Of a stretch of DNA of 64,000 nt, positions 21,517 through 62,394 are shown in pieces. The notes beneath the pieces are model-generated. The model had not been told where the DNA came from, made no database searches, and saw nothing but the letters and a program-made list of their open reading frames with translations. The stretch's first letter is position 1; the number at the start of each line of letters is the position of its first letter. Source of the stretch: a methanogenic archaeon mixed culture ISO4-G1. GTDB lineage: Archaea > Thermoplasmatota > Thermoplasmata > Methanomassiliicoccales > Methanomethylophilaceae. The stretch is from positions 1,039,773 to 1,103,772 of the forward strand of contig CP013703.1 of NCBI GenBank assembly GCA_001563305.1, in the 5' to 3' direction. Made by a program: the position numbers and the translations under genes.

Positions 21517-22314
21517 ATGACTTCCGAACTCATCTTCGTTGGACTGGGCCTCAGCGGCACCGACGGCATGACCGTCAAGGCGCTCCACGCCCTGAAGGAA
21601 TGCGACAAGATCTACGCCGAGTTCTACACCTCGCTGCTCATCGGCACCAAGGTGGAGGACCTGGAGGCCGCCATCGGCAAGAAGATCAAGGTCCTCTACA
21701 GGGCACAGGTCGAGGAGTGCGACGACATCATCAGGGATGCTCTCGAGATGAGGGTCGGATTCGTGACCGCCGGGGACACCATGTCGGCCACCACCCACGT
21801 GGACCTTAGGATCCAGGCTGCGGAAGCAGGGATACCAGTCAGGCTGTTCAACGGCATCACCATCTTCTCCGCATGCCCCACGGTGTTCGGCCTGCAGAAC
21901 TACAAGTTCGGAAGGACTGTCACATTGCCGTTCATCGAGCAGGGCTACCACCCCAAGTCGCCTTACGACCACATCATGGCGAACAAGAAGATGGGTCTCC
22001 ACACGATGATTCTCCTGGACATCCATGCCGACGAGATGAGGTACATGACCGCCCATGAGGCGATCGAATGGCTCATGCTCGGGGAGGAGAAGTGGGGTGA
22101 GGGACTCATCGACGACAGGACCATCCTGTGCGTCGCATCGAGGGTCGGTTCCCCCGATGAGAAGATCTTCGCCGGCTACCCGCAGGACCTTCTGAAGATG
22201 GATCTCGGAGAACCGCTGTTCACGCTCGTTCTTCCCGGGAACCTGCACTTCATGGAGCAGTATGCCCTTGTGAAGTTCGCTGGTGCCCCAGAGGATATCA
22301 TCGAGGATGAATGA
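21517..22314 (+). CDS. dphB: diphthine synthase
   Basis: 265 aa tetrapyrrole-methylase-fold protein with LIFVGLGL...FVTAGD and diphthine-synthase-like overall sequence. Confidence 0.85.
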   Translation: MTSELIFVGLGLSGTDGMTVKALHALKECDKIYAEFYTSLLIGTKVEDLEAAIGKKIKVLYRAQVEECDDIIRDALEMRVGFVTAGDTMSATTHVDLRIQAAEAGIPVRLFNGITIFSACPTVFGLQNYKFGRTVTLPFIEQGYHPKSPYDHIMANKKMGLHTMILLDIHADEMRYMTAHEAIEWLMLGEEKWGEGLIDDRTILCVASRVGSPDEKIFAGYPQDLLKMDLGEPLFTLVLPGNLHFMEQYALVKFAGAPEDIIEDE

Positions 22315-22385
22315 CCTATAAGTGGTAAATTATATCCGTTGTTCGATTCTGATACATGCTGGCTGGATGAGTTAGGACAATATAT

Positions 22386-22423
22386 CCAACCGTATTATAT
22401 ATACGGATTGGGATTACTAATCC
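22386..22423. promoter_or_regulatory. two adjacent palindromes (CCAACCGTA-TTATATA-TACGGATTGG and GGATTA-C-TAATCC) upstream of the ABC-importer island
   Basis: Seen directly, 45-80 bp upstream of the 22469 start. The first flanks a TATATA box. Confidence 0.3.
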
Positions 22424-22468
22424 AATTCACTTAGGTGAACTATATCAATGGTTTAACCAGGCGATATC

Positions 22469-23305
22469 ATGGATAAGAAAATCGGAATTATAGCCGTTGT
22501 CGCTGTAGTCATAGTCGTTGCAGCTGGAGCGATTGTTCTGACCAACGGTAAAGATCCTTCAGCCACAATCCTCGTTGAGGATCAGAATGGAGTTTTCTTC
22601 TGGACAGAGGGTTCAGGAAAGACCATTGCGGATTGTCTCGAGAAGACATCCGCAGGTGTAAAAGTAACAATGACTGACAGCTCATTCGGCAAGTACATCC
22701 AGGCAGTTAACGGACTTGCTGGAACCGAAGACTACACAGGATACTGGTCTGTTTATCAGTACAGCAACGGAGAATGGGTGTCATCAGAACTTGGAGTCTC
22801 AAGCCTTGAAACAAAAGATAACCAGTACATTGGACTGTTCTACGTAATCACGGACCCTGAGACATATGCAATTGTTCAGGGCGGTCCTGAGAAAGTAACC
22901 GTCCCCTCCATCACCGATGCAAAGGTCTGGGACGGATCAACCGACGGAGTCATCTTTGCACTTCAGGGAGAATCTGGATTGTACTGCTACATCAACAGCA
23001 CAGTCGGAGAGAACATGTCCGAGAGATTCGACGACGCATGCACCAAATACATGGTATCCCACAGTATGAGCTCCAGGGGAGGAATCTCCACCCTGTTCGG
23101 ACTCGGAAGCGTCCCTGTTGGAACTCAGGATGATGCCACCATCTACAAGTACTGGATCCAATACGGACTCGAGGACGGAAAGTGGACTTGGATGACCACC
23201 GGACTCAAGAACACCGATGCCAACGCATACAAACAGATGGCAATCTTCTACGGTGTCGGTTCCATGTATGGTGGAGAAGACCCCACTGTACCGGCTTACG
23301 CTTGA
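22469..23305 (+). CDS. N-terminally membrane-anchored extracytoplasmic protein with DUF4430/transcobalamin-beta-like module
   Basis: N-terminal TM (IIAVVAVVIVVAAGAIVL). Motif block DCLEK...VNG....YTGYWSVYQYSNGEW is shared with the N-termini of the next two proteins. Confidence 0.45.
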   Translation: MDKKIGIIAVVAVVIVVAAGAIVLTNGKDPSATILVEDQNGVFFWTEGSGKTIADCLEKTSAGVKVTMTDSSFGKYIQAVNGLAGTEDYTGYWSVYQYSNGEWVSSELGVSSLETKDNQYIGLFYVITDPETYAIVQGGPEKVTVPSITDAKVWDGSTDGVIFALQGESGLYCYINSTVGENMSERFDDACTKYMVSHSMSSRGGISTLFGLGSVPVGTQDDATIYKYWIQYGLEDGKWTWMTTGLKNTDANAYKQMAIFYGVGSMYGGEDPTVPAYA

Positions 23306-23349
23306 ACAACGTTTAAACAAACCTCTTCCAAACCCTTTTATTTGATAAA

Positions 23350-24714
23350 ATGAAAACATCCATGAAAGTTGTTTTGAGCCTTGTTCTGGTCTTCATTGGA
23401 ATAACTTTAGCGGTAGTTTTCACACCACAAGTGGAGTCGGCGTACGCACAGGGAATCATCCTAGATTTCGGGGATTATGACATTTACTATCTCGGTATTG
23501 ATGATGAGGATGAGAACGCAATCGATTCCGTCAACAAACTCTGCGACTACTATTCCATGTCGATAACATGGAACGGGAACCAGATCTCAAAGATTTCCAA
23601 GGAATATATTGATTATCCAGAATCAGGAAGCACAGCAACCTGGAAACTGTATATCAACGAAAAGGACACTATCGGTTGGAAACTGTTCGATGGATCCGCT
23701 GAAAAGCTCCACATCGGTGATTACTCGGCAGTTTGCTGGGGGCTCTGCGAAAAGGATGAGGAACCTACACCTGGCGTAGATGCCATGGGGATCTGCTTCT
23801 ACGGTTACGGACAAAGCTACCGCATTGTATCACTAGCACCGTCCTGTACCGAGACGATAGCCGCTTCAGGCGCTGGTAATATCATAGTCGGCGCCGATGA
23901 ATTCAGCAATTATCCGCTCTACATCAAACAAGCAATGGAGTCGGGTGCTATCGTTTCAGTTGGAGGGTACACCAATCCCAGTTACGAAGTGATAGCACAA
24001 TTGAATCCGGATATTGTTATAGGCGTTGCCGACCAGTCTACACATCGCTCAGTAATAGAAAAGATGAGGGCCCACGGGGTCCACTGTCTAGCCACCTACA
24101 CGGGTGACAGCATCAAGACAATCATGGACAATACGTACATGATCGGTGCGGCAATGAACTATCAGCTCAAATCCACACAGACCATGCAACAGATCGAGGA
24201 TGCACTGGAAATACTGGATGCAGAACTATCTTCCGGATTATCGCACAGATCTGATGTTATGATCTCCCTTTCAACCTCCAAATCACCCTGGGTGGCAGGA
24301 GGCAATACTTACGCTTCTGATGTAATAAGTCGCGCGTTGTGTAATAATATATACTCATCAGAAACAGGATGGGCGATGGTCAACAGTGAAACTGTTCCCT
24401 CGCGCGATCCTGAATATATCATCGTAGTTTCGTCTGATTACGGTAATACAGATGAAGACTACAATAACATGATCTCCTCCCTCTCTGCAGAATGGAGGAA
24501 TACAACTGCCTTCAAACAAGGTAACATCTTTTTGCTCACCGGAGGGGCCACAGATTTAGCATCTCGTCCTTCCACACGCATAGCACAATTCACAGAACTC
24601 ATGTGCAGGATGATCCAACCAGAAATCTTCAACGATATCAATCTACCTCATCACATCGGTGACGATTACAAGGATTACCTGACGATAACGAAAGAATTGG
24701 GGTTCGACACATGA
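23350..24714 (+). CDS. periplasmic-binding-protein (BtuF/FhuD class III) with extra N-terminal DUF4430-like domain
   Basis: Signal/TM at N-terminus. Residues about 150-454 are BtuF-like (IVSLAPSCTE..., NPDIVIG). The N-terminal 120 aa carry the W..Y.NG..W module. Confidence 0.65.
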   Translation: MKTSMKVVLSLVLVFIGITLAVVFTPQVESAYAQGIILDFGDYDIYYLGIDDEDENAIDSVNKLCDYYSMSITWNGNQISKISKEYIDYPESGSTATWKLYINEKDTIGWKLFDGSAEKLHIGDYSAVCWGLCEKDEEPTPGVDAMGICFYGYGQSYRIVSLAPSCTETIAASGAGNIIVGADEFSNYPLYIKQAMESGAIVSVGGYTNPSYEVIAQLNPDIVIGVADQSTHRSVIEKMRAHGVHCLATYTGDSIKTIMDNTYMIGAAMNYQLKSTQTMQQIEDALEILDAELSSGLSHRSDVMISLSTSKSPWVAGGNTYASDVISRALCNNIYSSETGWAMVNSETVPSRDPEYIIVVSSDYGNTDEDYNNMISSLSAEWRNTTAFKQGNIFLLTGGATDLASRPSTRIAQFTELMCRMIQPEIFNDINLPHHIGDDYKDYLTITKELGFDT

Positions 24715-27700
24715 TGAAACAGAACACGGTTCTAAAGACCTCTGCTTTGGTAGCGATCCTCGTGGTAACATCTCTCTTCCTGTTCGTGCCAGAGTTGGAT
24801 GCAGATGGTGCATACATCCTCATCGACAAAGGAGACGGAGACACCTATTGGTATTCCGGAACCACAGAGACAGTCGCTGATTCATTCAGTACGGCCGCCC
24901 AATCCCTGGGATTGGACCTGAACATCGACGGTTCTAAAATAACTGTTGACGGAGTATCTTCGATTACCATCGGAAGCCAAACCGTATCCTGGAGAATCTA
25001 TCAGTGGGGGGATGGATGGGTCGACGTCACATCTTCTATCGATATGAGCTCCGCGCCCACATCATCCATGGCCATCGGGTTGTATCCCGCGGGCACAACC
25101 CCTACCGAGACGCCCGCGTTCATGGACTCATGGACCCAGGTCCGCGGAAACGCCTCAATGACAGGTATACAGAATGCCAATCTGGATTCCGAGAAGACAA
25201 TGGAGAACGTACTAGCATGGTCAAGAGGGGATAACGACTACATCACCGGTTGCGTACTCGTGGCCCGTGAGCATGTCTATGGATTCTTCAACGGCGGATA
25301 CATGAACACCCAAAGTACCCCTGCATTGTTCTGCTTCAACAGATTTACGGGAGAGACAGAGTGGATCGTTAACGTTCCTGCAGGAGTCGGATATGAGACC
25401 ATGTCAGGCTGTATAGTCGGCGATTACTACTATCTCCCGACCAGTTACGGATACATCTACAGGATTCCACTGGATAACCCAGGTGAGGCCTCATACTATG
25501 TCCAGATGTCCTCAAGGCTCATGGTAGATGAGGACAAGATGCCTTCAGTGACTTCCGTGAAATATAAGGCAACAGGGGAAGGCACCTACCATGATGCCCC
25601 TCTGGAGATTATGGACACTAACGCTTTCGATATACCAGTCAGCATCGGATCTACCTATGACATCCAGATATCGGATAGTAGCAGAACCTACAACGGGACA
25701 TTAACCGTCAACAACGAAGATGCACTCGGGGTAAAAATAACCGGAAATACCGAAGAAGACAAGAGTCTCATCGGAGACTACTCCTCTCGCATAAGCTATT
25801 CGTATTCCGAAGTTACAAAGACATTCATCTCGAAGACCAGATCCCCGAACATGGAAGGGCGCACGATATACAACACTGGGCCCGCTTCCATCACATACTA
25901 CGGGGGCGCACTGTTCTTCGGCACCAGTTCAGGATACACCTATGCCCTGGATTTGGATCTAAATACCCTGTGGAAGACCGACGTTAGGAGTCAAAACTAC
26001 TACGATTCTGTCATGATTTGTGATGACAGAGTATTCGTGGGAACTTACAGCGGAAAACTGTACGCATTAGATGTCTCCACTGGAGAGATCAAAGCATCGG
26101 TAACAGCAGCCTCCTACCCATCCACCGTCTACGGTGACGGAGGAAGAGTCTGCACGCCTGTGAAAGTGGATGACATTCTATTCTTCTCATCATCCGACGG
26201 ATTAGGGATGAACAGTACCCAGGGAGGATTCTCTGCATACACATTCAAAAACGATTCGTTCACGAAGATCATGTCCAACACCGACTATGGTCAAGCCTCA
26301 ACATACATGACAGTAGTGATAAATACTGAATTCAAAGGAGTCTACTTTACCACAGATTACGGTCTGATGAGACTGTCCACCGATATGCAACTCGAGATCA
26401 TCAATGAGAAGATGACGGGAGTACGTGCATCCCCAGTGCTTGTCAACGGCGATACTCTCCTAATGCAGGATTACGCCTATGCCAAGAACAACGTGGGCGG
26501 ACAGATGTACAGAGTGACCCTCGATGGTACAATCGAAGGACAATACCAGAGGCCCAGTGAGGTGGATCAGTGGACTATGAGCCCAATCACGGCCATAGGC
26601 GAGTACCTGTACGGCGGAACAGATAATGGGTTCTTCATACTGGAAGGGAAAATGCCCGAAGTCAAAGATGATTCGGGCACCGGAGGGATCAATCCTCTAT
26701 GGATTGCTTTGGCGATAATCGCAGTTATAATCAACATACTGCTCATCATAAGCTTCTTCCTAGCCAAGAAGAGCAACATGTCGACGGGAAAATACATCGA
26801 ATCAAAATTCTCGAGGATCAGCGGATTCCACAACGACTCCATGTCAAAGACGCAGGCAAACAAACGTCGTCTATTGTTCGTCCTGATACTTGGAATCATA
26901 ATCATGCTTATCATGTTCATATGCTGTCTGGCATATGGGCCTTCGATGAGCCTCTCGCCCATAGATGCTTTCTCCAATCTGATATCCGCTATACAAAAAG
27001 GTGGAGAAGGATTGACTCTGTCCGAACTTGTTGTGTACGAATCGCGTCTACCTCGTGCGATAGCCGCGATTGCCGTAGGACTGGGATTAGCAGTAGCCGG
27101 TTGCATATATCAAGCTGTCATCCGTAACCCGATGGTGGACCCGTACATAATGGGTGTTTCATCCGGAGCAGGAACCTTCGCGGTTGCTGCCATAGCGAGC
27201 GGATTCACATTCTTTGGACTTCTGGATAACTCTGAATTCATGATTCCTGTCCTCGCGATTGTCGGTGGACTGCTCGCGTTTGGACTCACCATGCTTCTTG
27301 CCTCCAAGGCAGGGAACACGGCCACAGGGTATGTGCTTGCAGGAGTTGTTATCGGATTGGCGTTCACATCAATCCAGACGGTCATTTTGACAACATCTGA
27401 TTCGGAAAAGCTCCACAGTGCGATATCTTGGCTGTACGGAAGCTTCACCAGTGTCGATTGGGGAACCGTTTGGCTGATATTCTTCCCTGCACTGTTCCTA
27501 TCACTGACTTTCTTGATCTGGGCCAAGGAGCTGAATCTTGTTCTTCTGGGCGACGATAACGCACAACAAATGGGTCTGAATGTCAAAAAATTCGATGCCC
27601 TGATGCTCATACTTGCATCGGTCCTGACATCTGTCTGCGTCGCATTTGTGGGAATCATCGGATTTGTAGGACTGGTCGTTCCTCACATCTGCCGTATGAT

Positions 27701-27893
27701 CTTGGGAGGAGATCACAGGCTGGTCCTACCTGCATCAATGGTCCTAGGTGCAGCATTGATGCTGCTTGCGGATCTGTTGGCAAGAATGCTAATGATCCCG
27801 TTGGAATTACCAGTCGGTGCCATCACCACTGTCGTCGGAGTACCACTGTTCGCTTATCTACTCATTAAGAGAGGGAGGATGTACAATGGATGA
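24711..27893 (+). CDS. fusion protein: signal/TM anchor - DUF4430-like domain - PQQ-like beta-propeller - TM - FecCD/BtuC-type ABC permease
   Basis: 1060 aa. Residues about 380-620 hold repeated YALD..TG..W/K PQQ-type blades. Residues about 700-1060 are a canonical FecCD permease (RLPRAIAAIAVG..., GVSSGAG...). Confidence 0.75.
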   Translation: MMKQNTVLKTSALVAILVVTSLFLFVPELDADGAYILIDKGDGDTYWYSGTTETVADSFSTAAQSLGLDLNIDGSKITVDGVSSITIGSQTVSWRIYQWGDGWVDVTSSIDMSSAPTSSMAIGLYPAGTTPTETPAFMDSWTQVRGNASMTGIQNANLDSEKTMENVLAWSRGDNDYITGCVLVAREHVYGFFNGGYMNTQSTPALFCFNRFTGETEWIVNVPAGVGYETMSGCIVGDYYYLPTSYGYIYRIPLDNPGEASYYVQMSSRLMVDEDKMPSVTSVKYKATGEGTYHDAPLEIMDTNAFDIPVSIGSTYDIQISDSSRTYNGTLTVNNEDALGVKITGNTEEDKSLIGDYSSRISYSYSEVTKTFISKTRSPNMEGRTIYNTGPASITYYGGALFFGTSSGYTYALDLDLNTLWKTDVRSQNYYDSVMICDDRVFVGTYSGKLYALDVSTGEIKASVTAASYPSTVYGDGGRVCTPVKVDDILFFSSSDGLGMNSTQGGFSAYTFKNDSFTKIMSNTDYGQASTYMTVVINTEFKGVYFTTDYGLMRLSTDMQLEIINEKMTGVRASPVLVNGDTLLMQDYAYAKNNVGGQMYRVTLDGTIEGQYQRPSEVDQWTMSPITAIGEYLYGGTDNGFFILEGKMPEVKDDSGTGGINPLWIALAIIAVIINILLIISFFLAKKSNMSTGKYIESKFSRISGFHNDSMSKTQANKRRLLFVLILGIIIMLIMFICCLAYGPSMSLSPIDAFSNLISAIQKGGEGLTLSELVVYESRLPRAIAAIAVGLGLAVAGCIYQAVIRNPMVDPYIMGVSSGAGTFAVAAIASGFTFFGLLDNSEFMIPVLAIVGGLLAFGLTMLLASKAGNTATGYVLAGVVIGLAFTSIQTVILTTSDSEKLHSAISWLYGSFTSVDWGTVWLIFFPALFLSLTFLIWAKELNLVLLGDDNAQQMGLNVKKFDALMLILASVLTSVCVAFVGIIGFVGLVVPHICRMILGGDHRLVLPASMVLGAALMLLADLLARMLMIPLELPVGAITTVVGVPLFAYLLIKRGRMYNG

Positions 27894-28689
27894 AACACCG
27901 CTTCTTGAGGTCAGAAACCTCAACAAAATCTACGACAATGGATACCATGCGGTACGCGACGTATCATACAAGCTACCGTCCGGCAAACTCGTCGGATTAA
28001 TCGGACCGAACGGGTGCGGTAAATCCACAATGATGAGGTGCATCAACAAAATGCACTCTATCACATCCGGTGATGTTCTGATCGATGGTATATCGGTCCT
28101 TGACCAGAATGTCACAGAGATTGCAAAACAAGTCGCCAATGTGCCAGCAGAACTGAAAAACAGCTTTGGACTCACCGTTTATGAAACGGTCATGTTAGGC
28201 CGCTACCCGTATCTGAGGAACCTTTGGTGGGAGACCAACGAGGATGAATCGGATGTCATCGATGCCATGAAGAAATTTGGTGTCGACCACCTTCAAGATA
28301 GGCAGATTAATATGCTCTCATCAGGAGAGATGCAGAGAGTACTGATTGCCAAGGCATATGTTCAGAACCCCAGATTAATGCTGGTCGATGAACCAACATC
28401 ACACCTTGACATGAAGTACAAACTGAACGTCATGGAATATTTGCGTGCAATGGTACGTCAGGATATGACGGTTCTTGTCGCGGAACACGATATTTCCCTT
28501 ATGGCAAGATATTGTGATCTCTGCATCATCATGAAGAAAGGAGAGTTAGTGACGATAGGAGATCCGAAAGAGGTCATCACAGAAGAGTTAGTGCGCGATG
28601 TCTACGATGTCGTAGCCAATGTGGGCGTGGACAAAGATGGAGAAATATACGTCCTACCAAAAAGATTCGTAGGAAATTACGAACTATGA
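27886..28689 (+). CDS. ABC transporter ATP-binding protein (FecE/BtuD-like)
   Basis: Walker A GPNGCGKST, signature LSSGEMQRV, Walker B LMLVDEPTSHLD. Start MDETPLLEV overlaps the permease stop. Confidence 0.85.
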   Translation: MDETPLLEVRNLNKIYDNGYHAVRDVSYKLPSGKLVGLIGPNGCGKSTMMRCINKMHSITSGDVLIDGISVLDQNVTEIAKQVANVPAELKNSFGLTVYETVMLGRYPYLRNLWWETNEDESDVIDAMKKFGVDHLQDRQINMLSSGEMQRVLIAKAYVQNPRLMLVDEPTSHLDMKYKLNVMEYLRAMVRQDMTVLVAEHDISLMARYCDLCIIMKKGELVTIGDPKEVITEELVRDVYDVVANVGVDKDGEIYVLPKRFVGNYEL

Positions 28690-28727: not shown

Positions 28728-29726
28728 ATGGTCAAGTGCGTACTGGTACCCAAATCGGACGGGGAATCCGTCCGTTCGCGCCTCATGTCAGAGGGTATTC
28801 TGGACCTGGGTTCCAAGATACGCAGCGAGGGCGACAGCCTCCTGATACCAATCACATGCGACTCCTTCGAGGACTTCGAGATCGTCGAATCCGAGATGGA
28901 GGTGCAGGAGCACAAGGTCCTGGATTACACGGAGATCGCCGATGTACCAGATGAGCTGAGGGACAGCCTCCCCAGTTCTTTCGACATCGTCGGCGATGTC
29001 GCCATGATCAAGATCCCCGAAGAACTGTGGGACTACAGGTCCTCTATCGGGGATGCGCTGATTAAGGTCAACAAGAACATCCGTGTGGTGTTCCACGACT
29101 ACGGTGTGAAGGGCGACTTCAGGATCAGGGACCTGGAGAAGATAGGCGGAGAGGGGACTTCGGAGACGATCCACAAGGAGTTCGGCGTGAGGCTCTACAC
29201 AGACCCTTCTAAGGTCTACTTCAACCCCAGGCTATCATCCGAGAGGTCGAGGATCGCGAACCTCGTCAAGGACGGGGAGACGGTCATCGACATGTTCGCC
29301 GGTGTGGCCCCGTTCGGGACCGTCATCGGCAAGCTGGCACATCCCAAGGTCATCTATTCCATCGACCTCAATCCCGAGGCGGAGCGCTTCGCACGCATCA
29401 ACGCCGAGAAGAACCACATCGACTGCCTCGTTCCCATGACCGGCGACTCGTCGAAGCTCATCTATGACCTGCCGATGGCGGACAGGGTCATAATGAACCT
29501 ACCGCAGATCGCGGACAGGTTCCTGGGCTTCGCCATGGACAGGATGAATCATGGCGCCGTCGCCCACATGTACAAGATCATCGAGAGGGCGGAGTTCCCT
29601 CGGTTCTGCGATGGCCTTTCGGAAGAGATGGAGAAAAGAGGACACCGCATCGAGATACACAGCTCGCAGCTGAAGACATACTCCCCGACCATGAGCGTGT
29701 ACTCGATGGATGTCGTGAAACTGTGA
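28728..29726 (+). CDS. tRNA (guanine37-N1)-methyltransferase Trm5/Taw2 family
   Basis: Class I SAM methyltransferase with Trm5-type DMFAGVAPF motif and NLP catalytic loop. 332 aa. Confidence 0.7.
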   Translation: MVKCVLVPKSDGESVRSRLMSEGILDLGSKIRSEGDSLLIPITCDSFEDFEIVESEMEVQEHKVLDYTEIADVPDELRDSLPSSFDIVGDVAMIKIPEELWDYRSSIGDALIKVNKNIRVVFHDYGVKGDFRIRDLEKIGGEGTSETIHKEFGVRLYTDPSKVYFNPRLSSERSRIANLVKDGETVIDMFAGVAPFGTVIGKLAHPKVIYSIDLNPEAERFARINAEKNHIDCLVPMTGDSSKLIYDLPMADRVIMNLPQIADRFLGFAMDRMNHGAVAHMYKIIERAEFPRFCDGLSEEMEKRGHRIEIHSSQLKTYSPTMSVYSMDVVKL

Positions 29727-30218
29727 TCAATCCTTCTTGATCTGCTCCAGGGTGACCCCGGTCTGTCCCTGGTAGTGGCCGCTCCTCTCGGAGTAGTCCT
29801 TGAGCGTGACGCTGTTGAGCGTCTCGAACACCATCTGGCAGAACCTCTCGCCGATCGGCAGCTCTATCGGGTCGTCGGTGGCGTTGTATGCCCCGAGCGT
29901 CAGTGTTCCCTCGAATCCCGCATCGATCTTCCCGAATGCGCCAATGATGCCCTTCCTGATCCATGTGGTCCTGAGCCAAAGCTGTGCGCAGACGTCCTTG
30001 GGCATCCTGACCCTCTCTATAGTCGATACATAGAACATCGTCCTCGGAGGGATGGTGACCGTCCCCTCCGTCTTCAGGTCCGGGTCTCCCCTGACCATGA
30101 TCTCCTTGATGCGCAGATCGTAGCCGTTGGGTGTGAGTCCGCGCTCGTGGTAGTCGCTGATGCCCAGATATCCGGTCATCATGCTCTCGACGATGTCCTT
30201 GTCCGATAGTATTGCCAT
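29727..30218 (-). CDS. dcd: dCTP deaminase / dUTPase-fold protein
   Basis: 163 aa with the typical dCTP deaminase family sequence (GYDLR...G.IDAGF.G). Confidence 0.8.
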   Translation of the reverse strand: MAILSDKDIVESMMTGYLGISDYHERGLTPNGYDLRIKEIMVRGDPDLKTEGTVTIPPRTMFYVSTIERVRMPKDVCAQLWLRTTWIRKGIIGAFGKIDAGFEGTLTLGAYNATDDPIELPIGERFCQMVFETLNSVTLKDYSERSGHYQGQTGVTLEQIKKD

Positions 30219-51434: not shown

Positions 51435-53051
51435 TCACTGGACCAATCTCAGGGAGTCGTACTTATAGACTTTCTTGGGGCAACTGAACTGGCATCTGTA
51501 GCATGCGGTTCCGAGACAGTTCTTGGTCTGTACCACGATCTCGTTGTCGTCCATGACCTTCAGTGCATGCTCGGGGCATTCGTTCTCGCATTTCTTGCAG
51601 CCAATGCAGCCTTCCATGTATCCGCGAAGCTCGGTCCCGATGTCGTGAAGGATGAAGAGCCCTCTGTCACCCAGATCAGGGATGTCACGCTGGACCATCC
51701 TGTGGACCGTGGGGTTACCGGTCGGTTTCGGCAGCTCCTGTATGCCGGCGATCGCGTTGTTCCTGTTGTACATCTCCATGCTCATGCCCTCGTCGCAGAC
51801 CGCGAGTTCCTGGGTGTAGATCTGCTCGAACACCTCGTCCCCGGCGAACATTATGTGGTTGGCCCTGATGCCGTTGGCTATGTCCTGGAGCTTATCCAGC
51901 AGCTCTGGGTCCCTGAGGATGTCCGTAGCCATTGCCAGCGATGTATTCCCGTACTGGTAGATCGTGTTGCACGAAGGGGGCAAGAGTCCCACCTTCCTGG
52001 CCTTGACAGCATCCACGTATGTACCGGATGCGCCGGCCATGTACATGATGTCCAGATCGCTGAACTTGATGCCTGCGTGCTCCAGAAGGGTGAAGTGACC
52101 GGCCCTCATCGCACCGATGGCCTTCAGGGCCTCCGATATGTCGTGTGAATCGATGGTGATACCATCCTGCAGATGGAGCAGCCCGTCGCTGGTGTCGATC
52201 TTCCCCTTCCTCCACAGATGGGCCTCGAGAAGGGCGGATACGGCCGCGATCACACCTGTTCCGGTGATACCTTTGGCCTTCCCGCTCATCGGACCCTCCG
52301 GCGTGACGGTCTCCAGGGCTATGTCGACCCTGTCGCCGTTCTCAGGTATTATATCGTCATTCAGGACCTTGCATATGTACTGGAAGTCGTACTCCAGGTC
52401 CGAGATGGCCCCGGGCCCGGCGAGCATACCGCATCTTATGGACTGGCCTTCCATGGCAGGTCCGGCCGCGGCCGAACCCGTGTATATGTCGTCGCCGACC
52501 TTCAGCGCCATCTCCGCGTTCGTACCGTAATCCGTGACGAGGCAGTTCTCCTTCTGCTCGAGGAAACCGCTCTTGTACATCATGGCCAAGGCGTCCGCAC
52601 CGATCTCGTGCCTGATGGCCGGAGGGACCAATAATTCGCATCCGTCCTTGACATCGAGACCGACGTCCACCGCGGAGAATGTACCAGCATCCCTCTTCTG
52701 GGCGACTATCCCTCTTGCCTTGTGGGCGTTGTCGCCTGCGAACGCAAGATCGTCCACGGGGATCCCCTGGAAGAGCGACAGCTGGATAGGGTTTCCGCAG
52801 ATGCTTACCCTCTCGACCTTGTTCAGATCGACGCCTAGGGTCCTGATCAGCTTGTTAACGGTATCCATCAGGATGTTGTGGGCCGTCTCAGTGCCGTTGT
52901 TGATGCAGAACGTAAGGTGATCCATGATGTTGGCACCCGGCAAGGGATGACATTCCGTGACAGATGTCGAAAGGATCCTGCCGTTCGAGAGATCGACCGC
53001 ATGACCCCTTGTTCCGCTCGTACCTATATCCAGGGAAATACCGTAACTCAT
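51435..53051 (-). CDS. ramA: RamA-like corrinoid reductive activation protein (ASKHA ATPase + 2x[4Fe-4S] ferredoxin domain)
   Basis: 538 aa with a C-terminal CIGCKKCENECP...CYRCQFSCP. Positioned between mtaB and the cobW-like gene. Confidence 0.7.
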   Translation of the reverse strand: MSYGISLDIGTSGTRGHAVDLSNGRILSTSVTECHPLPGANIMDHLTFCINNGTETAHNILMDTVNKLIRTLGVDLNKVERVSICGNPIQLSLFQGIPVDDLAFAGDNAHKARGIVAQKRDAGTFSAVDVGLDVKDGCELLVPPAIRHEIGADALAMMYKSGFLEQKENCLVTDYGTNAEMALKVGDDIYTGSAAAGPAMEGQSIRCGMLAGPGAISDLEYDFQYICKVLNDDIIPENGDRVDIALETVTPEGPMSGKAKGITGTGVIAAVSALLEAHLWRKGKIDTSDGLLHLQDGITIDSHDISEALKAIGAMRAGHFTLLEHAGIKFSDLDIMYMAGASGTYVDAVKARKVGLLPPSCNTIYQYGNTSLAMATDILRDPELLDKLQDIANGIRANHIMFAGDEVFEQIYTQELAVCDEGMSMEMYNRNNAIAGIQELPKPTGNPTVHRMVQRDIPDLGDRGLFILHDIGTELRGYMEGCIGCKKCENECPEHALKVMDDNEIVVQTKNCLGTACYRCQFSCPKKVYKYDSLRLVQ

Positions 53052-53161
53052 AGTATCATCTCAGCTGCACCTACGAAATATGCTTACAAATATGTGAATG
53101 TTGGAGGTCCCGGCGATACGAGGAGATCGGACCCGCCGGTAAATGGTTTTCAAGGGGGAAT

Positions 53162-54562
53162 TCAGAGTCCGTAGTTCTTCATGTTGAAGTTGGGGACGAT
53201 GTCCTTGTACTCCTTTGCTGCCCACTCGACGAACTTGTCCTCGTCATCGGGGAGTGCGGAGAGCTTCTTGTTGATGTCCTGGAGGGTCTCGAGCTGCTTG
53301 GTGGTGAGTCCGAGCTCCTTGGATTCGTAGCCCTTAAGGAGGATCTCGACTGCCTTGGTTCCGGCGGCCTTGGCCCTGAGGTAGAGGTTGTCACCGTACT
53401 GGGCGATTGCCTTTCCAATCTCGTATGCGTGGTCGTACGCGAGGATGTATGCCTCGGGTCCTCTGTACCTGTCAGAGTACATGTACATGTCCCTGAGGGT
53501 CTTCTCCTGCTTGAGCTGGATCGCGGTGTTCATGAGTGAGGCCTCGTATCCGATCGATCCGAACCAGCACTGGACGGAGGTTCCTCCGAACTCGGGGTGG
53601 TACTCGACGGACTCGTTGGACCACAGGTCACAGCACTGGGCGATGAGGTTACCCTGCAGATCGCAGTGTGCGCACTGGCAGTTCTTTCCCTCCTGTGCGG
53701 TGGGCTTTCCTGCGATGGCTTTGACGATGGGTCCCTCGTAACCGCAGTCCTTGTCGGGACCGACGGCTCCGGCCTCCCAGGCGCAGAGCGTCCTTGCGGC
53801 GGAGATTGCACGGGTGACGGCGGAGAAGGTCCTCTGGACATCCTGGTCCATCATTCCTCCGGCCATGAACATGGAAACGTTCGCTCCGGAACAGTTGGTG
53901 TCTCCTCCCGCAACGCAGTGGTTCTTCTTCGCGATGTCGACGAGCTGCTCCCAGAGCCAGGTCATATCGATGGATCCGAGGTAACCGACTCCGAACAGGA
54001 ATGCGACGATGTCTCCGTTGGTGACTGCGTAATCTGCGAACTCCTTTCCTCCGACAGACTCGATGGAGAGGTTGTTGCATCCGTTCTCACATGCGATGTC
54101 CGCACACTCGAACAGCTTCTCGGGATAGGCGTGGGCGGAGTCCATGCCGGGCCTGAGTCCGTGGTCGGCCTCACGCTGGTCGGGGATGGTCTGCCTGGTA
54201 CCGCAGTTGAGTCCGTACTCCTCGTGGTACTTCTCGCACATCTCCTGCTGTCCCGCGACGACGGGTGCGGAGAGCTTGGCCTGGTTCATCTGGGAGACCC
54301 ACTCGGTCTCGAGCTGGACATTGGGGAATCCGACTGTGAGTGCCCTGTTGAGGATGTCCTTGGTGATGTAGTCCACGTACTCCTTTCTGAGCCTCTCGGG
54401 ATCCTTCTCGGTTCCGGGCCTGGGTGCGTAGTTGATCTCGGGGATGACGTATCCGGCTCCGATCTTCAGACCGAATCCGTAGGACACGGGATTCTTCGAG
54501 AAACCGAAGACCATGTCGTCTGCACAGTCGTATGCCATCTTTGTGTATCTTGATACTGCCAT
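53162..54562 (-). CDS. mtaB: methanol:corrinoid methyltransferase MtaB
   Basis: 466 aa, collinear with Methanosarcina MtaB from the N-terminus (MAVSRYTKMAY...EINYAPRP...) to the C-terminus (ENYG). Confidence 0.9.
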   Translation of the reverse strand: MAVSRYTKMAYDCADDMVFGFSKNPVSYGFGLKIGAGYVIPEINYAPRPGTEKDPERLRKEYVDYITKDILNRALTVGFPNVQLETEWVSQMNQAKLSAPVVAGQQEMCEKYHEEYGLNCGTRQTIPDQREADHGLRPGMDSAHAYPEKLFECADIACENGCNNLSIESVGGKEFADYAVTNGDIVAFLFGVGYLGSIDMTWLWEQLVDIAKKNHCVAGGDTNCSGANVSMFMAGGMMDQDVQRTFSAVTRAISAARTLCAWEAGAVGPDKDCGYEGPIVKAIAGKPTAQEGKNCQCAHCDLQGNLIAQCCDLWSNESVEYHPEFGGTSVQCWFGSIGYEASLMNTAIQLKQEKTLRDMYMYSDRYRGPEAYILAYDHAYEIGKAIAQYGDNLYLRAKAAGTKAVEILLKGYESKELGLTTKQLETLQDINKKLSALPDDEDKFVEWAAKEYKDIVPNFNMKNYGL

Positions 54563-54563
54563 C

Positions 54564-55346
54564 TCACTGACCCCCTACAATTGCATCCCATTCTTCTCTA
54601 ACCTGTTTCCACGTGTAACCCTGCCTGATCTTCTCTGCGATCAAGGGGGTCTGAGGTGCCTTCTCGGAATAGATTCCGAGGTCGTAGGAGTTAGCGTACT
54701 CCCTGTTGACTGCACCGCCGCATCCCATCAGGGGAATCTCGATTCCCTTCTCCATGAGGATCTTGGCCTCGGCAGGGAATGCGGACATGGTCGTGGTCAT
54801 GAGTGCGGTTCCGCTTGCGAACAGGGGCTTGACCTCCTCGACCTTTGCGATGAAGTTTGTGATTGCCACATCACGTCCCATGTCGATGACGTCGTATCCG
54901 GAGGACCTGACCATGACGGCCGCGATGTTCTTTCCGATGTCGTGGGGGTCTCCCTCGGCAGCGTGCATGACGACGGTTCCCTTGGACTCTCTTCCGCCGG
55001 GGACCATCTTGACTGCGATCGCGATTCCGATCTCCATTGTCTTTGCTGCCATCATGATCTCGGGAAGGAAGTAGACGTGCTCTGCGTAGAGCTTTGCGAC
55101 ACATTCCATACCTGCGACCAGTCCATTGTTGATGACGTCGAGGGGATCTTTCTGTTTGAGGGCCTCCGTAACGACGGGGACCACTGTCTTGAATCTCATA
55201 TAGAGAATCTCTTCTGCTACCTGCCTTAATACAGGATCTTCGGGCAAGAGTTTCTTTGCCATCTGCTCGGGTGTGAGTGATACCTGAGTCTCGATGTCGT
55301 AACGCTTGAGGACCTTTGTGAAATCTGCACCTTCCTTACTAAGCAT
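54564..55346 (-). CDS. mtaC: methanol corrinoid protein MtaC (B12-binding)
   Basis: 260 aa with a DxHxxG cobalamin-binding motif (GDPHDIGKN) and an N-terminal cap helix domain. 1-nt gap to mtaB. Confidence 0.9.
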   Translation of the reverse strand: MLSKEGADFTKVLKRYDIETQVSLTPEQMAKKLLPEDPVLRQVAEEILYMRFKTVVPVVTEALKQKDPLDVINNGLVAGMECVAKLYAEHVYFLPEIMMAAKTMEIGIAIAVKMVPGGRESKGTVVMHAAEGDPHDIGKNIAAVMVRSSGYDVIDMGRDVAITNFIAKVEEVKPLFASGTALMTTTMSAFPAEAKILMEKGIEIPLMGCGGAVNREYANSYDLGIYSEKAPQTPLIAEKIRQGYTWKQVREEWDAIVGGQ

Positions 55347-55607: not shown

Positions 55608-57125
55608 ATGTCATCCATAGTCTATTTGAAAAATCCGAGGTCCAATACTATTTATGCCTATCTCAATGAATCCGTTTGGGATCCAGAAAGGAAGAAGACG
55701 GTATACAGGAGGAAGTGCGTAGGGCATGTGGACCCGGAGACTGGGGAGATCGTTCCCAACAGGAAGACGTTGGTGAAAGACAGTCCGATCGTGAAATCCA
55801 GATACCTGTGCGCCATCTATGACAGGGTATCCGAGGACATGCACCTTACGGAGACACTCAAACTTTCCTTCCCGGACCACTGGAAGAAGATCCTTTCCAT
55901 AGCCTACTACCTGCTATCAACCAACGAACCGCTCTCGTTCTGCAAACAATGGTCGGAACAGCATAAGACCCCATACAACCAGACCATCAGCAACAATCTG
56001 ATCAACGACCTCCTGACATCCATCAACCCCAATGGGATCTCCCTTTTTTTCACACTCTGGAAACTGCGTGTCCAGCCTGTGGAAACATTCACCGCGTCCA
56101 TCAATATCGGAGGCCACAGGATCAACCTCAGCGAGTTCTCAAAAGACTATATGGAGATCAGCAACGACTTCGACAACAGTCTGAAGATGACCATGTACTT
56201 CTCCACTAAGAGCAACGTCCCGATTTGCTATCAGCTGTCCGACCCCATCACCGGGCGCAAGATCGGCGATTACGATGTCTCCCCCAACAGCTTCAGCAGG
56301 CTGTCGTCCTTCATCGACCATACCCGCGGTGACAACGTGGACCCTTCACTGGTGCCGTATGCGGACAGCAACATCACCGTCCGCACCTACCCCAACAACG
56401 ATTTCGTCAGGAACCTTGTCGAGAAGGTCGGATCGACCATCACCAACCCTGAGAACTACAGGATCATCCTGGGAACCCCGATGTTCATCGAGAGCTTCAT
56501 GCAGCACGTCAGCGGGAAGAAGTACTATGTCCACATCTTCTTCGACCCGAACCAGGCCGTGACGGACCTGTCCGCATTCATCTCGGTTATCAACATGTGC
56601 AAATACGAACTCGAGATGGATTCCCCTGTGGAGAGGCATCAGCAGTTGTACGACGAGTTCCTGATAGTCAAGGAGGATGAGAAAGGGAACACTGTGGTGG
56701 AACTGAACAGTGAGGCTATCATGAACCACAACAAGTTCCTTGGATACAACGTCCTGATATCGAACTTCACGGGTAACGCCTCCACTGCCATCGTCCCGTT
56801 CATCCAGAGGTCCAGCGTCTCAAGGAGGTTCGATTCGATAAGGAACGAGTACGACAGCACTACCATGAACCTCTTCACGGAGACCAACTATCTGAGCAGG
56901 GTCTTCCTACAGTTCATATCACTGATCCTCAGGGTCGGCGTCCTGAACGTGATGAACACGAAGAAGCTCAACAGGACCATGACCTTCAAGGAGGTGGTCA
57001 TGGAGATATCCAACCTCAGGACCGTGAAGATTCCGGGGGTAAAGAGACCCCAGAACACGTTCGCCAGCGATGAGCAGCTCCGTATCCTGAGGGCTTTCGA
57101 CGTGCCCATCGACGATGAGAAATGA
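55608..57125 (+). CDS. IS1634/IS4-family transposase-like protein (possibly degenerate or domesticated)
   Basis: N-terminal IVYLKN..TIYAYLNESVWDPERKK..RRKCVGHVDPETGEIVP resembles the conserved N-terminal block of IS1634-type transposases, and GYNVLISN resembles their internal motif. A clean DDE triad could not be confirmed by eye. Composition looks AT-shifted. Confidence 0.4.
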   Translation: MSSIVYLKNPRSNTIYAYLNESVWDPERKKTVYRRKCVGHVDPETGEIVPNRKTLVKDSPIVKSRYLCAIYDRVSEDMHLTETLKLSFPDHWKKILSIAYYLLSTNEPLSFCKQWSEQHKTPYNQTISNNLINDLLTSINPNGISLFFTLWKLRVQPVETFTASINIGGHRINLSEFSKDYMEISNDFDNSLKMTMYFSTKSNVPICYQLSDPITGRKIGDYDVSPNSFSRLSSFIDHTRGDNVDPSLVPYADSNITVRTYPNNDFVRNLVEKVGSTITNPENYRIILGTPMFIESFMQHVSGKKYYVHIFFDPNQAVTDLSAFISVINMCKYELEMDSPVERHQQLYDEFLIVKEDEKGNTVVELNSEAIMNHNKFLGYNVLISNFTGNASTAIVPFIQRSSVSRRFDSIRNEYDSTTMNLFTETNYLSRVFLQFISLILRVGVLNVMNTKKLNRTMTFKEVVMEISNLRTVKIPGVKRPQNTFASDEQLRILRAFDVPIDDEK

Positions 57126-60389: not shown

Positions 60390-61609
60390 CAGATCACCAG
60401 ATTCGCATTTTCGACCTGACGGTGGAAGTCGGTCGGCGACTCGATCGATTCCTCGATCTTGTCCATCAGTCTCTCGATCCCGTAGAATCCGAACAGACCC
60501 CTGTCCTGCACGATGTCCACCGAGCGCTGCGCCATGGTGAAGTACGCGGCATTGAACCCTATCGCTATGTCAACGCTCCCGCACTTCCCTACCATGGAGG
60601 ACATCGCCGGATCTCCGCAGTCATAGACCTTCAGGTCCGGGATCCTGGCCTGCAGATACTCCAGATCCTCCCTCTCGGACTTCGATATCCCCGAATGGAA
60701 CACGGAACGCACATCGAAACCGTAATTCACCAGGCTCCTGGCGAGGTCGAACGGCCTCTCGGTGGCCATGCTCCCAACCGATACGGTCATACCCTTGACC
60801 ATATCGGATACCTTCCTGACATGGTCCTCTGCGCTCTTGGCGTACTTATCGAGATCGAAGCTGACCCCGAGCGATTCGGACAGCCTGCGGTAATGGTCCT
60901 TCACGCGGTCCACGGAATATGTGGGGAGCAACGGAATGTGCCTTGCGTTGCTGATCTCCTTGGCAGCACTCATCGCCTTCACGGACAGAACGAGGTTCGT
61001 GCCTGCCATCCCCATACGGAGGAAATCATCGTAGGTTCTGCACAGCGTGAGATGCTTGACCTCTTTCACCCCGCATCCCTTCAACAACGGGTACAGTTCG
61101 CATTCCGCATCTGGTGCCGCATCGGAGCCGATGAGGTTCACGATGTCGTCCCGGACATCCGTGAAATCCAAAAGACCCAGTATCTTCTTTTGTGTGGCGA
61201 CCGCGGGCGGATTGTGGGTGTCCGCGGCCACAGGGTTCATGTCCACCACGAGCACCTCTGTATCCGAATTCTCCGATTTGACCCTCTGTCTGAGACGCTC
61301 GTTGTCCAGACCTGAAATGTACGTCGAACAGCAGACGTATATCAGGAGTATCCTTGGGCGTCTGCTCCGGATGATCTTCGAGGCTGCCTCGACGACGCCG
61401 TCCTCGGCCACGCCCAGGATTACCTCGCTCTCGTCCATCACATAGTAGCTCATCCTGTCGCTGTATCCTGCCAGGTGAGCGGATATTGATATGTGCCTGC
61501 CGCAGGCATTGGAGGATGCCATCAGGATCTGGCTCTCCGGTATGTCCGAACCGACGCGTACGATGCCGTAACCGCCGTCGGTCGCCGGACAGAAGCACAG
61601 CCTGGACAT
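60389..61609 (-). CDS. nitrogenase component-1-like oxidoreductase paralog, 406 aa (alternative start at 61522)
   Basis: Same family by overall pattern. If the start is M30 (61522), it forms a TGATG overlap with the upstream ABC ATPase stop. Confidence 0.55.
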   Translation of the reverse strand: MSRLCFCPATDGGYGIVRVGSDIPESQILMASSNACGRHISISAHLAGYSDRMSYYVMDESEVILGVAEDGVVEAASKIIRSRRPRILLIYVCCSTYISGLDNERLRQRVKSENSDTEVLVVDMNPVAADTHNPPAVATQKKILGLLDFTDVRDDIVNLIGSDAAPDAECELYPLLKGCGVKEVKHLTLCRTYDDFLRMGMAGTNLVLSVKAMSAAKEISNARHIPLLPTYSVDRVKDHYRRLSESLGVSFDLDKYAKSAEDHVRKVSDMVKGMTVSVGSMATERPFDLARSLVNYGFDVRSVFHSGISKSEREDLEYLQARIPDLKVYDCGDPAMSSMVGKCGSVDIAIGFNAAYFTMAQRSVDIVQDRGLFGFYGIERLMDKIEESIESPTDFHRQVENANLVI

Positions 61610-62394
61610 CGCAGCCTCCCGATCGGAATTATGAACCTGTACGTCTCGCCGTTCTCGGTCATGGAGCCTATCCTGGCCTTGACCCTGAACACGTTCATGA
61701 GGTTCTCCTCCGTGATCACATCAGCGGTGTTTCCGAATATGTAGTTGCCCTTGCCGTCCAGCATGAGGGTCTTGTCCGAGATGCGGAGAGCGTGCTCCGG
61801 ATAATGGGTGTTGATTATGCATGTCATCTCGCCAGACAGTTCCTCGATCAGATCCATTATCCTCAGCTGGTTGCTGTAGTCCAGATTGGATTCAGGCTCG
61901 TCGAGCACGAGGATCTCCGGTTCGGACACGAGTGCTCTCGCGATCATGACGAGCTGCATCTCTCCCCCGCTCAGGGTGTTGTAGCGGCGGTCCGCAAGAG
62001 ACGCGATGTTGAGTCTCTCCAGATAGGAGTCGACGATGGCCTCGTCGGCCTCCGAGGGGGAATCATACATGCCGATGTGGCCTGAACGGCCCATCATGAC
62101 CATCTCCCTGACCGTGTAGTCGAAGGTGGCACTCTTCATCTGCGGAACATATGCCAGATGCTTGGTCAGCTCCCTGGGGGAGAACGTGCTTATGTCCCTG
62201 CCATTGAGTTCGGCCTTCCCCGAGGACCACTTGTAGAATCCCATCACGCACTTGAGGAGCGTGGTCTTCCCGGCCCCGTTGGGTCCGAGGATGGTGAGGA
62301 CCTGATTGTCCCCTACCTCGAAGCTTATGTCGGAGAACAGGACGCGGTCCCCGAACCCGAAACGCCCGTTCGTGACCTTCAAATCCTTGACCAT
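61522..62394 (-). CDS. ABC transporter ATP-binding protein (FecE/BtuD-like)
   Basis: Walker A GPNGAGKTT, signature LSGGEMQLV, Walker B LVLDEPESNLD. Start MVKDLKV overlaps the permease end. Confidence 0.8.
   Translation of the reverse strand: MVKDLKVTNGRFGFGDRVLFSDISFEVGDNQVLTILGPNGAGKTTLLKCVMGFYKWSSGKAELNGRDISTFSPRELTKHLAYVPQMKSATFDYTVREMVMMGRSGHIGMYDSPSEADEAIVDSYLERLNIASLADRRYNTLSGGEMQLVMIARALVSEPEILVLDEPESNLDYSNQLRIMDLIEELSGEMTCIINTHYPEHALRISDKTLMLDGKGNYIFGNTADVITEENLMNVFRVKARIGSMTENGETYRFIIPIGRLRCPGCASVRRPTAVTASYASVRTYRRARS

Follow-up and report, generated by a model that had tools for sequence, protein, structure and literature searches.

Methyl-reducing methanogens of the rumen and the human gut rely on corrinoid methyltransferases, and competition for cofactors of the B12 type shapes gut communities. 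In Bacteroides, B12 is captured at the surface by the lipoprotein BtuG, a beta-propeller that caps BtuB. In archaea, the clustering of btuFCD with cbiZ and other salvage genes, associated with the work of Woodson and Escalante-Semerena, is a known marker. A further route was predicted in 2007 by Burroughs, Balaji, Iyer and Aravind, who proposed that paralogous extracellular transcobalamin-like SLBB proteins encoded in transporter operons scavenge B12 (PMC1796856); propeller fusions form part of the same SLBB set (PMC1796856). Later, a comparative study of 2024 pointed to "diverse BtuC clades" among Methanomassiliicoccales, a diversity through which methane emission might be influenced (PMC10804542), and the main text of that study uses none of the words "fusion", "fused" and "propeller". 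The present analysis concerns a four-gene operon (g1 to g4) of the methanogenic archaeon mixed culture ISO4-G1, a rumen methanogen of the Methanomethylophilaceae (Methanomassiliicoccales), within a 64-kb stretch of its genome that was analyzed as a whole and is referred to as the window. With a probability of roughly 0.6, this operon is the ISO4-G1 copy of a conserved, decorated BtuCD-F-like importer that most likely serves corrinoids, that is, cobalamin-type cofactors or precursors such as cobinamide.

Architecture of the operon

The four genes are co-directional, with overlaps of 4 nucleotides (nt) between g2 and g3 and 8 nt between g3 and g4. Translation of g4 starts at the ATG at position 27886, which gives a length of 267 amino acids (aa) and an 8-nt overlap that both match the homologues. 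Public databases label the products "hypothetical", "iron ABC transporter" and "helical backbone metal receptor". A BtuFCD-type layout had been proposed from the nucleotide sequence (the original prediction) and is borne out by Pfam: a FecCD/BtuC-type permease (PF01032, 281.9 bits), a Peripla_BP_2 binding protein (PF01497, 103 bits) and an ABC ATPase (PF00005, 111.8 bits) all lie above their cut-offs and identify a type-II ABC importer of the FecCD/BtuC class. The ATPase g4 matches ABC_tran with E 5e-32, and among NCBIfam models it scores highest with "corrinoid ABC transporter ATPase" (208 bits; cut-off 537).

Each of the three extracytoplasmic proteins, g1, g2 and g3, has a hydrophobic helix at its start and, behind it, a module of ~100 aa with the common block W..Y....(N/D)G.W. 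The first, g1, is identical (100%) to AUP07_1013, annotated as "hypothetical"; it is membrane-anchored and consists only of two SLBB modules, p1a and p1b, an internal duplication that is obvious in its homologue P0010. In g2, an anchor helix is followed by the module p2n and then by a binding domain of class III (BtuF/ShuT-like), the latter matched by Peripla_BP_2 at residues 159-396 (E 2e-29), and a Cys-containing linker, CWGLC...GICFYG, follows p2n. Proteins of the g2 type, carrying the N-terminal module and measuring 442-474 aa, form ~78 clusters, beyond which there is an abrupt fall in similarity, the next matches being ordinary ~300-aa binding proteins that correspond to the C-terminal 60% only. 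The cysteines behind the N-terminal module of g2 (CWGLC, G.C.YG and APSCTET; window 23734-23799, residues 129-149, and residue ~166) are invariant in the 7 closest orthologues and conserved in the majority of the wider family; from their pattern, they might form disulfides or act as metal or cobalt ligands.

The third protein, g3, proceeds from a signal/anchor helix through an SLBB module (p3n) and a propeller of ~8 blades with a beta-sandwich insert to a transmembrane (TM) helix, a Lys/Arg-rich linker and the BtuC/FecCD permease. The propeller between p3n and the permease was missed by the original prediction. Its Pfam matches are PQQ_2 and Beta-prop_ACSF4, and the g3 ectodomain model has a predicted local distance difference test score (pLDDT) of 88.8 and a predicted template-modelling score (pTM) of 0.90. 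Foldseek returns tetrathionate hydrolase (6l8a, E 6e-13), BamB (TMt up to 0.77), YxaL and PQQ dehydrogenases for the propeller; a BtuG-like identity was considered and rejected, BtuG being absent from the top 50 matches. The beta-sandwich insert is found only in a clade of ~1060-aa proteins, termed type I, and not in the 938-953-aa homologues P0026-P0029.

Four homologous modules with a predicted transcobalamin-like fold

The modules had been described as three paralogues sharing the W/Y/NG block, one on each extracytoplasmic protein. Their paralogy is supported by BLASTP and hhalign, and their number has to be corrected to four, given the tandem p1a and p1b in g1, plus the beta-propeller. In BLASTP against a database of the four sequences, p1a aligns with p3n at 27% identity over 108 aa and p2n with p3n at 24.5%; a further copy is recognizable in p1b, the second half of g1. 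With alignments of orthologous modules, hhalign gives 99.2% (E 1e-19) for p1a and p1b, 96.3% for p1a and p3n, and 86.8% for p2n and p3n; deeper alignments, built on 44 p2n and 48 p3n sequences of related genomes, yield 98.1% for p2n and p3n, 92.7% for p2n and p1a, and 96.7% for p3n and p1a. Controls with reversed or column-shuffled templates reach at most 1.2%. Since Pfam scans of p1b, p2n and p3n return no family, homology is demonstrated by profile-profile comparison with these controls, and judged from the profiles it is beyond chance for all four modules. A profile of the g1 family recovers only 130 proteins from 1.84 billion representatives and, at E<=1e-3, none of the N-terminal modules of g2- and g3-type proteins among them; the links between the g1 modules and those of g2 and g3 therefore come from hhalign only.

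The predicted structure of g1 (pLDDT 86, pTM 0.82) comprises two beta-grasp units, each with the order strand-strand-helix, a two-strand hairpin and three strands. In Foldseek comparisons with the PDB, the top 11 matches of this model are the B12 carriers transcobalamin (also as the isolated beta domain), intrinsic factor and haptocorrin, joined by 3u7z, a DUF4430 protein of bacterial origin. A hairpin inserted after the helix is the hallmark of the transcobalamin-like clade of SLBB domains (PMC1796856). At the level of the model, the fold of g1 is settled as that of this clade of the SLBB beta-grasp superfamily: a five-stranded beta-grasp with one helix and a post-helix hairpin is predicted, and its nearest structural neighbours are the beta domains of the transcobalamin family. 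The p3n region of the g3 ectodomain model (residues 35-125) has the topology E-E-H-E-E-E-E-E-E, again a beta-grasp in which a hairpin is inserted behind the helix, so that both models give a transcobalamin-beta-like topology. Extracytoplasmic location, indicated by the N-terminal helices, and transporter-operon linkage, seen in all of the 50 loci described below, likewise agree with membership of the clade.

The best match of the p1a profile in the PDB is the haptocorrin beta domain, with a non-significant E of 0.21. In this alignment, the p1a hairpin SSFGKYI..INGL is placed against haptocorrin RSWGPYITCIQGL, SSFGKY standing opposite RSWGPY. Within that stretch, haptocorrin contacts the corrinoid through R357, W359 and Y362 (PMC4350170), and p1a keeps aromatic residues at the positions of W359 and Y362. 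All modules are strongly conserved over ~50 species, surface-exposed W/Y positions included.

Distribution and linkage to cobamide salvage

The distribution of the system was surveyed in one genome per species (GTDB), with the propeller segment as query. In this way, 50 loci were found in Methanomassiliicoccales, all of which encode, in this order, the SLBB protein, the extended binding protein, the fused permease and the ATPase. Full-length homologues of the fused permease fall into 16 clusters, every one of them from sources of the Methanomethylophilaceae type, M. alvi among these, and the fused architecture occurs only in Methanomassiliicoccales. The number of tandem modules in the stand-alone SLBB gene differs among species, being one, two or four (upstream genes of 545 and 560 aa in loci L001 and L005; 1147-1605, 152 aa, in L004), and one metagenome-assembled genome (MAG), RGIG4274, has the operon twice, at separate sites (L030, L031).

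Two genomic contexts recur. In the first, which is that of the window, the operon is inserted between dphB and trm5-dcd-S66 (L005, L013, L015, L020, L021, L023, L025, L030, L034, L037, L051 and others). In the second, the order is dphB-trm5-dcd ... operon, and the operon is directly followed by genes for a CobD-type aminotransferase, CbiB, CbiZ, CobS, a CobY-like nucleotidyltransferase and CobT (L022, L028, L029, L035, L047, L049, L053, L057 and L059; divergently in L007). These neighbours are the archaeal genes for cobinamide salvage and nucleotide-loop assembly. In L007 they were identified by Pfam (CbiZ PF01955, CobS PF02654, CobD_Cbib PF03186, DBI_PRT PF02277) and in the other loci of this context by BLASTP matches at 37-80% identity. 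Linkage to salvage genes, by which a BtuCD-F assignment can be judged, is thus present in at least 10 relatives and constitutes the strongest evidence for a corrinoid substrate. In the window, MtaB and a RACo-type corrinoid activase stand beside MtaC, whose proposed position (54564-55346) is upheld by Pfam; this methanol methyltransferase cluster (51435-55346) confirms that the organism depends on corrinoids.

The module types are also joined in single polypeptides. P0167 (1444 aa) and P0181 (1206 aa) combine a p3n-type module, the propeller, 2-4 g1-like modules, a TM helix and FecCD, the g1-type tandem modules being placed between propeller and permease. Such Rosetta-stone fusions argue that g1 physically works with the permease. 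Other relatives carry g1-like modules as fusions with adhesin-like surface proteins of the BspA type (LRR_5/Flg_new; P0142, P0197, P0216; also P0007).

Substrate and proposed mechanism

Several observations weigh against a corrinoid importer with transcobalamin-like capture. Among the NCBIfam matches, the equivalogs for BtuC, BtuF and the corrinoid ATPase rank first or nearly so, but the permease scores for BtuC (216 bits with PRK03784 and 210 with another model) stay below the equivalog cut-offs of 334 or 461, the BtuF score of 51.5 bits stays below 234, and FhuB (216), FecD and FecE score about as high as the Btu equivalogs. Sequence scores by themselves thus do not single out a substrate, and the corrinoid scavenging of the original prediction draws its plausibility from the salvage genes of the relatives. 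The g2 protein is 100% identical to the ISO4-G1 product that NCBI names "iron ABC transporter substrate-binding protein", and the top solved relatives of its binding domain are the uncharacterised "iron-binding protein" 4m7o and the heme binder ShuT: against the PDB, the g2 family profile scores 128 bits with 4m7o, 83 with ShuT, 69 with BtuF and at most 55 with siderophore binders, so that tetrapyrrole-type binders rank above siderophore binders, yet heme above B12. The alpha-toroid partner domain that transcobalamin requires is absent here. With 16.8-18.7 bits (E 0.0025-0.0095), p1a stays below the gathering threshold of 23.8 bits of Pfam DUF4430 (PF14478), and the p1b, p2n and p3n modules of all orthologues are without a Pfam match. 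The aromatic residues of the p1a hairpin are replaced in p2n and p3n by G..I..(V/I).G ("G..ITVDG" in p3n); these two modules may therefore not bind corrinoids in the manner of transcobalamin. In addition, the salvage genes of L007 were sought by tblastn in the 64-kb window and are absent from it, the operon being located there between dphB and trm5. Of 15 orthologous p1a modules, 7 do match DUF4430, the best with E 1.4e-5. The likeness to DUF4430 and the transcobalamin beta domain advanced in the original prediction thus holds for the fold, on the strength of the g1 model and Foldseek, and not for the Pfam threshold, which no module of the window reaches.

If the operon imports corrinoids, g4 and the C-terminal part of g3 would form a BtuD2-BtuC2-like motor and channel, with g3 dimerized like BtuC, and g2, tethered by its N-terminal helix, would act as a BtuF-like shuttle. 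First, g1 would serve as an anchored, high-affinity surface trap made of tandem SLBB modules, in which the p1a hairpin would grip the corrinoid, possibly aided by p1b as a stand-in for the absent alpha-toroid. The permease-borne SLBB module and propeller would then hold or pass on the ligand beside the docking site of g2 and offer further hand-over sites of low affinity; alternatively, they would dock the components to each other. The module on g2 would either bind the ligand or dock to the other modules. An "archaeal transcobalamin system" of this kind on a BtuFCD importer, in which SLBB modules on g1, g2 and g3 together with the propeller operate as a corrinoid-stripping relay that feeds the channel, is a tentative proposal, rather short of even odds.

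It is possible, if somewhat doubtful, that the operon imports corrinoids and that g1 alone binds them, through p1a. The modules of g2 and g3 and the propeller would then be assembly or tethering devices, which keep g1 and g2 with the permease at the surface of a wall-less cell or bind to other cells or polymers. A docking or scaffold role for p2n and p3n is given roughly one chance in three because the aromatic hairpin residues common to p1a and haptocorrin are missing from both. It would suit this arrangement that relatives carry g1-like modules on the adhesin-like proteins mentioned above and that surface complexes of extracellular SLBB paralogues were proposed by Burroughs et al. (PMC1796856). 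The propeller can be read in the same way, BamB-type propellers typically being protein-interaction scaffolds; the strong conservation of all modules in ~50 species, exposed W/Y residues included, argues against a restriction of binding to p1a.

An importer of iron chelates or heme, whose SLBB modules would bind a non-corrinoid ligand, is unlikely. It would explain the NCBI name of g2, the rank of 4m7o and ShuT above BtuF for the binding domain, and the FhuB, FecD and FecE scores that match those of BtuC and BtuD; moreover, reviewers of the SLBB paper cautioned that members of the clade may bind other ligands (PMC1796856). The salvage genes that accompany the operon in at least 10 species point to a corrinoid importer instead.

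Origin of the compositional shift

The G+C content falls from ~0.57 to 0.46-0.50 across 22-29 kb of the window, and the edges of this shift are the intergenic spacers at the operon borders. At third codon positions (GC3), the values are 0.54 for g1, 0.50 for g2, 0.57 for g3 and 0.53 for g4, as compared with 0.81-0.84 for the immediate neighbours and 0.68-0.89 for all other plausible genes of the window. The excess of A/T-ending codons over dphB, trm5 and dcd noted in the original prediction is therefore real. It is a peculiarity of strain ISO4-G1 and not of the operon family: the GC3 difference between operon and flanks is -0.29 in ISO4-G1 and -0.02 +/- 0.06 in 35 related loci (minimum -0.16), and a gene-by-gene check of L001-L009 finds native composition of the operon in these relatives. 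The shift extends to the proteins, whose FYMINK and GARP fractions of 0.290 and 0.214 depart from the 0.243 and 0.260 predicted by regression on the flanks and equal those of the lower-GC loci L022, L028 and L007. In L034, L035 and L060 the operon is more mildly AT-shifted (GC3 difference -0.13 to -0.16), although noise in the calling of open reading frames could account for this; if these shifts are real, allele exchange between lineages of different G+C content may be recurrent.

The flanks of the ISO4-G1 operon are about equally similar to those of L005, L015, L025, L030 and L037 (dphB 83-85%, dcd 83-90% identity). At this same site, type I operons resemble that of the window at 77-81% in the binding protein and 66-70% in the propeller, and type II operons at only ~45% and 30-40%, respectively. 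The occurrence of two operon types at one site between nearly equal flanks indicates that alleles have been exchanged or replaced within the family. It therefore appears probable that the AT shift arose when an allele of a type I clade member with lower GC, itself unsampled, took the place of the resident operon. Two points speak against such a replacement. No sampled genome qualifies as the donor, the best non-self identities being 69% for g1, 71% for g2 and 66% for the g3 ectodomain, and neither an integrase nor att-like or otherwise meaningful flanking repeats are found, nor is there a tRNA within 5 kb. Judged as a genomic island, the segment thus deviates in composition and shows neither mobility signatures nor absence from relatives. 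Of the horizontal acquisition put forward in the original prediction, at most an allele replacement within the family survives; a foreign bacterial island is at odds with the native composition and the synteny of the operon in relatives.

That the shift arose in place, by local mutation bias or by selection for rare codons and slow translation in secreted and membrane proteins, is quite improbable. The operon proteins and the flanking genes have diverged from the L005 lineage over a similar range (53-88% and 59-83% identity, respectively), and milder negative shifts, down to -0.16, occur in a few relatives, as such an origin would allow. Relatives that encode the same proteins are not systematically shifted, however, and in ISO4-G1 all four genes are affected, that of the cytoplasmic ATPase included, amino-acid composition is shifted as well, and no other gene in the 64 kb behaves alike. 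Chimeric assembly of the mixed-culture genome appears unlikely because the borders coincide with intergenic spacers of a syntenic locus.

An island from a distant low-GC donor (Firmicutes or Bacteroidetes), suggested by the sharp-bordered fall in GC3 and by six matching contigs in bins with bacterial names, is effectively refuted, as every homologue with this architecture belongs to Methanomassiliicoccales, relatives carry the operon at the same insertion site, and mobility genes, tRNA and direct repeats are missing. The six contigs (L017, L019, L021, L048, L051, L060), binned as Bacteroides ovatus, Lachnospiraceae, Ruminococcus sp. CAG:579, Dialister hominis, Bacteroidaceae and Prevotella hominis, have the archaeal gene order ACS-dphB-operon-trm5-dcd-S66 (ACS, ADP-forming acetyl-CoA synthetase) and flanks 74-85% identical to those of ISO4-G1; they are therefore mis-binned Methanomethylophilaceae, from MAGs of one project.

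Upstream region and other features of the window

The spacer upstream of g1 contains TATA-like boxes, for example CTATATCA ~25 nt ahead of the ATG. It also harbors a perfect small palindrome, GGATTAcTAATCC, at 22410-22422, an imperfect palindrome, CCAACCGTAT...ATACGGATTGG, at 22386-22411, and three TATATC(C/A) boxes; judged by these motifs, the region 22381-22446 may be an operator. Rfam detects neither a cobalamin riboswitch nor another RNA near the operon. The absence of a riboswitch is the expectation for archaea.

The proposed identities of the flanking genes are confirmed by Pfam (Table 1). Farther downstream, an AT-rich spacer at 55-56 kb (G+C 0.44) precedes a 505-aa open reading frame, 55608-57125, without a Pfam match. 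A second FecCD-type ABC importer, undecorated and of native GC3 (0.74-0.77), lies at 61522-63991 on the minus strand; it could be an iron or heme system.

Table 1. Coordinates of the operon, its predicted domains and further features of the window
Feature	Position	Strand	Evidence or remark
AT-rich intergenic region, presumed promoter/operator	22315..22468	+	
g1, two-module SLBB protein, 278 aa	22469..23305	+	
g1 N-terminal hydrophobic helix, predicted signal anchor, residues 5-23	22481..22537	+	hydropathy 3.16; model helix 5-25
Module p1a, g1 residues ~30-140	22556..22888	+	copy nearest DUF4430; hairpin motif SSFGKYI..VNGL
Module p1b, g1 residues ~155-270	22931..23278	+	second, more divergent SLBB copy; strand/helix order of p1a in model
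g2, anchored substrate-binding protein, 454 aa	23350..24714	+	
Putative module p2n, g2 residues ~36-140	23455..23769	+	hhalign only
g3, 1060-aa permease fusion	24711..27893	+	
Module p3n, g3 residues ~34-126	24810..25088	+	BLASTP, hhalign, model
PQQ/BamB-like beta-propeller, ~510 aa, g3 residues ~140-650	25128..26660	+	PQQ_2 E 1.3e-6; model
Beta-sandwich insert in propeller, ~110 aa, g3 residues ~270-385	25518..25865	+	model strands 282-372
TM helix returning the chain to the cytoplasm before the permease, g3 residues 665-683	26703..26759	+	hydropathy 3.07
BtuC/FecCD-type permease domain, g3 residues 732-1053	26904..27869	+	PF01032 281.9 bits, E 7e-84
g4, ABC ATPase, 267 aa	27886..28689	+	
dphB-type TP_methylase	21517-22314		Pfam
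Trm5	28728-29726		Pfam
DCD	29727-30218	minus	Pfam
RACo-type corrinoid activase	51435-53051	minus	
MtaB	53162-54562	minus	
MtaC	54564-55346	minus	
Second importer, ATPase	~61630-62331	minus	
Second importer, permease	~62403-63233	minus	32% identical to g3 permease
Second importer, binding-protein fragment	~63488-63832	minus	

Comparison with known systems

The analysis provides a concrete, testable hypothesis for corrinoid acquisition in these archaea, and the exposed, lineage-specific proteins of the operon are candidate binders or targets. Literature searches retrieved no description of this importer architecture. Apparently undescribed is a type-II importer whose binding protein and permease both carry such modules by fusion; the same applies to a PQQ-like propeller fused to the permease, to a distribution limited to a single archaeal order and to linkage with salvage genes of the cbiZ type. 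If the proposed relay is correct, it would offer a surface-exposed, lineage-specific target against methyl-reducing methanogens of rumen and gut, and alleles of the system would be traded among members of the family, as the ISO4-G1 copy suggests.

With BtuCD-F of E. coli and its archaeal counterpart in Halobacterium, the operon shares the FecCD permease, the class-III binding protein and the ABC ATPase. In contrast to these, the ISO4-G1 permease carries an additional ectodomain of 655 aa and a TM helix, its binding protein has an N-terminal module and a membrane anchor, and NCBIfam equivalog scores are not reached. The SLBB operons of 2007 employ CbiO/CbiQ transporters of the energy-coupling-factor (ECF) type together with stand-alone SLBB proteins, the solved example being RUMGNA_00854 (3u7z) (PMC1796856), whereas the ISO4-G1 importer is of type II (FecCD/BtuC), with modules fused to its binding protein and to its permease. 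The 2007 prediction would thereby be widened from ECF-type to type-II ABC importers. BtuG is similar in concept, as a surface beta-propeller attached to the machinery of B12 uptake; the g3 propeller differs in being PQQ/BamB-like with ~8 blades and covalently joined to an inner-membrane permease, and a role in binding is speculative. The beta domains of transcobalamin, intrinsic factor and haptocorrin share the transcobalamin-like SLBB fold with the operon modules. Unlike the mammalian carriers, these modules, which are known here from sequence and models, have no alpha/alpha-toroid partner, occur in tandem or fused to a transporter, and score below the Pfam threshold. If it operates as proposed, the relay would represent a third independent solution to high-affinity capture of B12, beside the mammalian carriers and BtuG/BtuH of Bacteroides.

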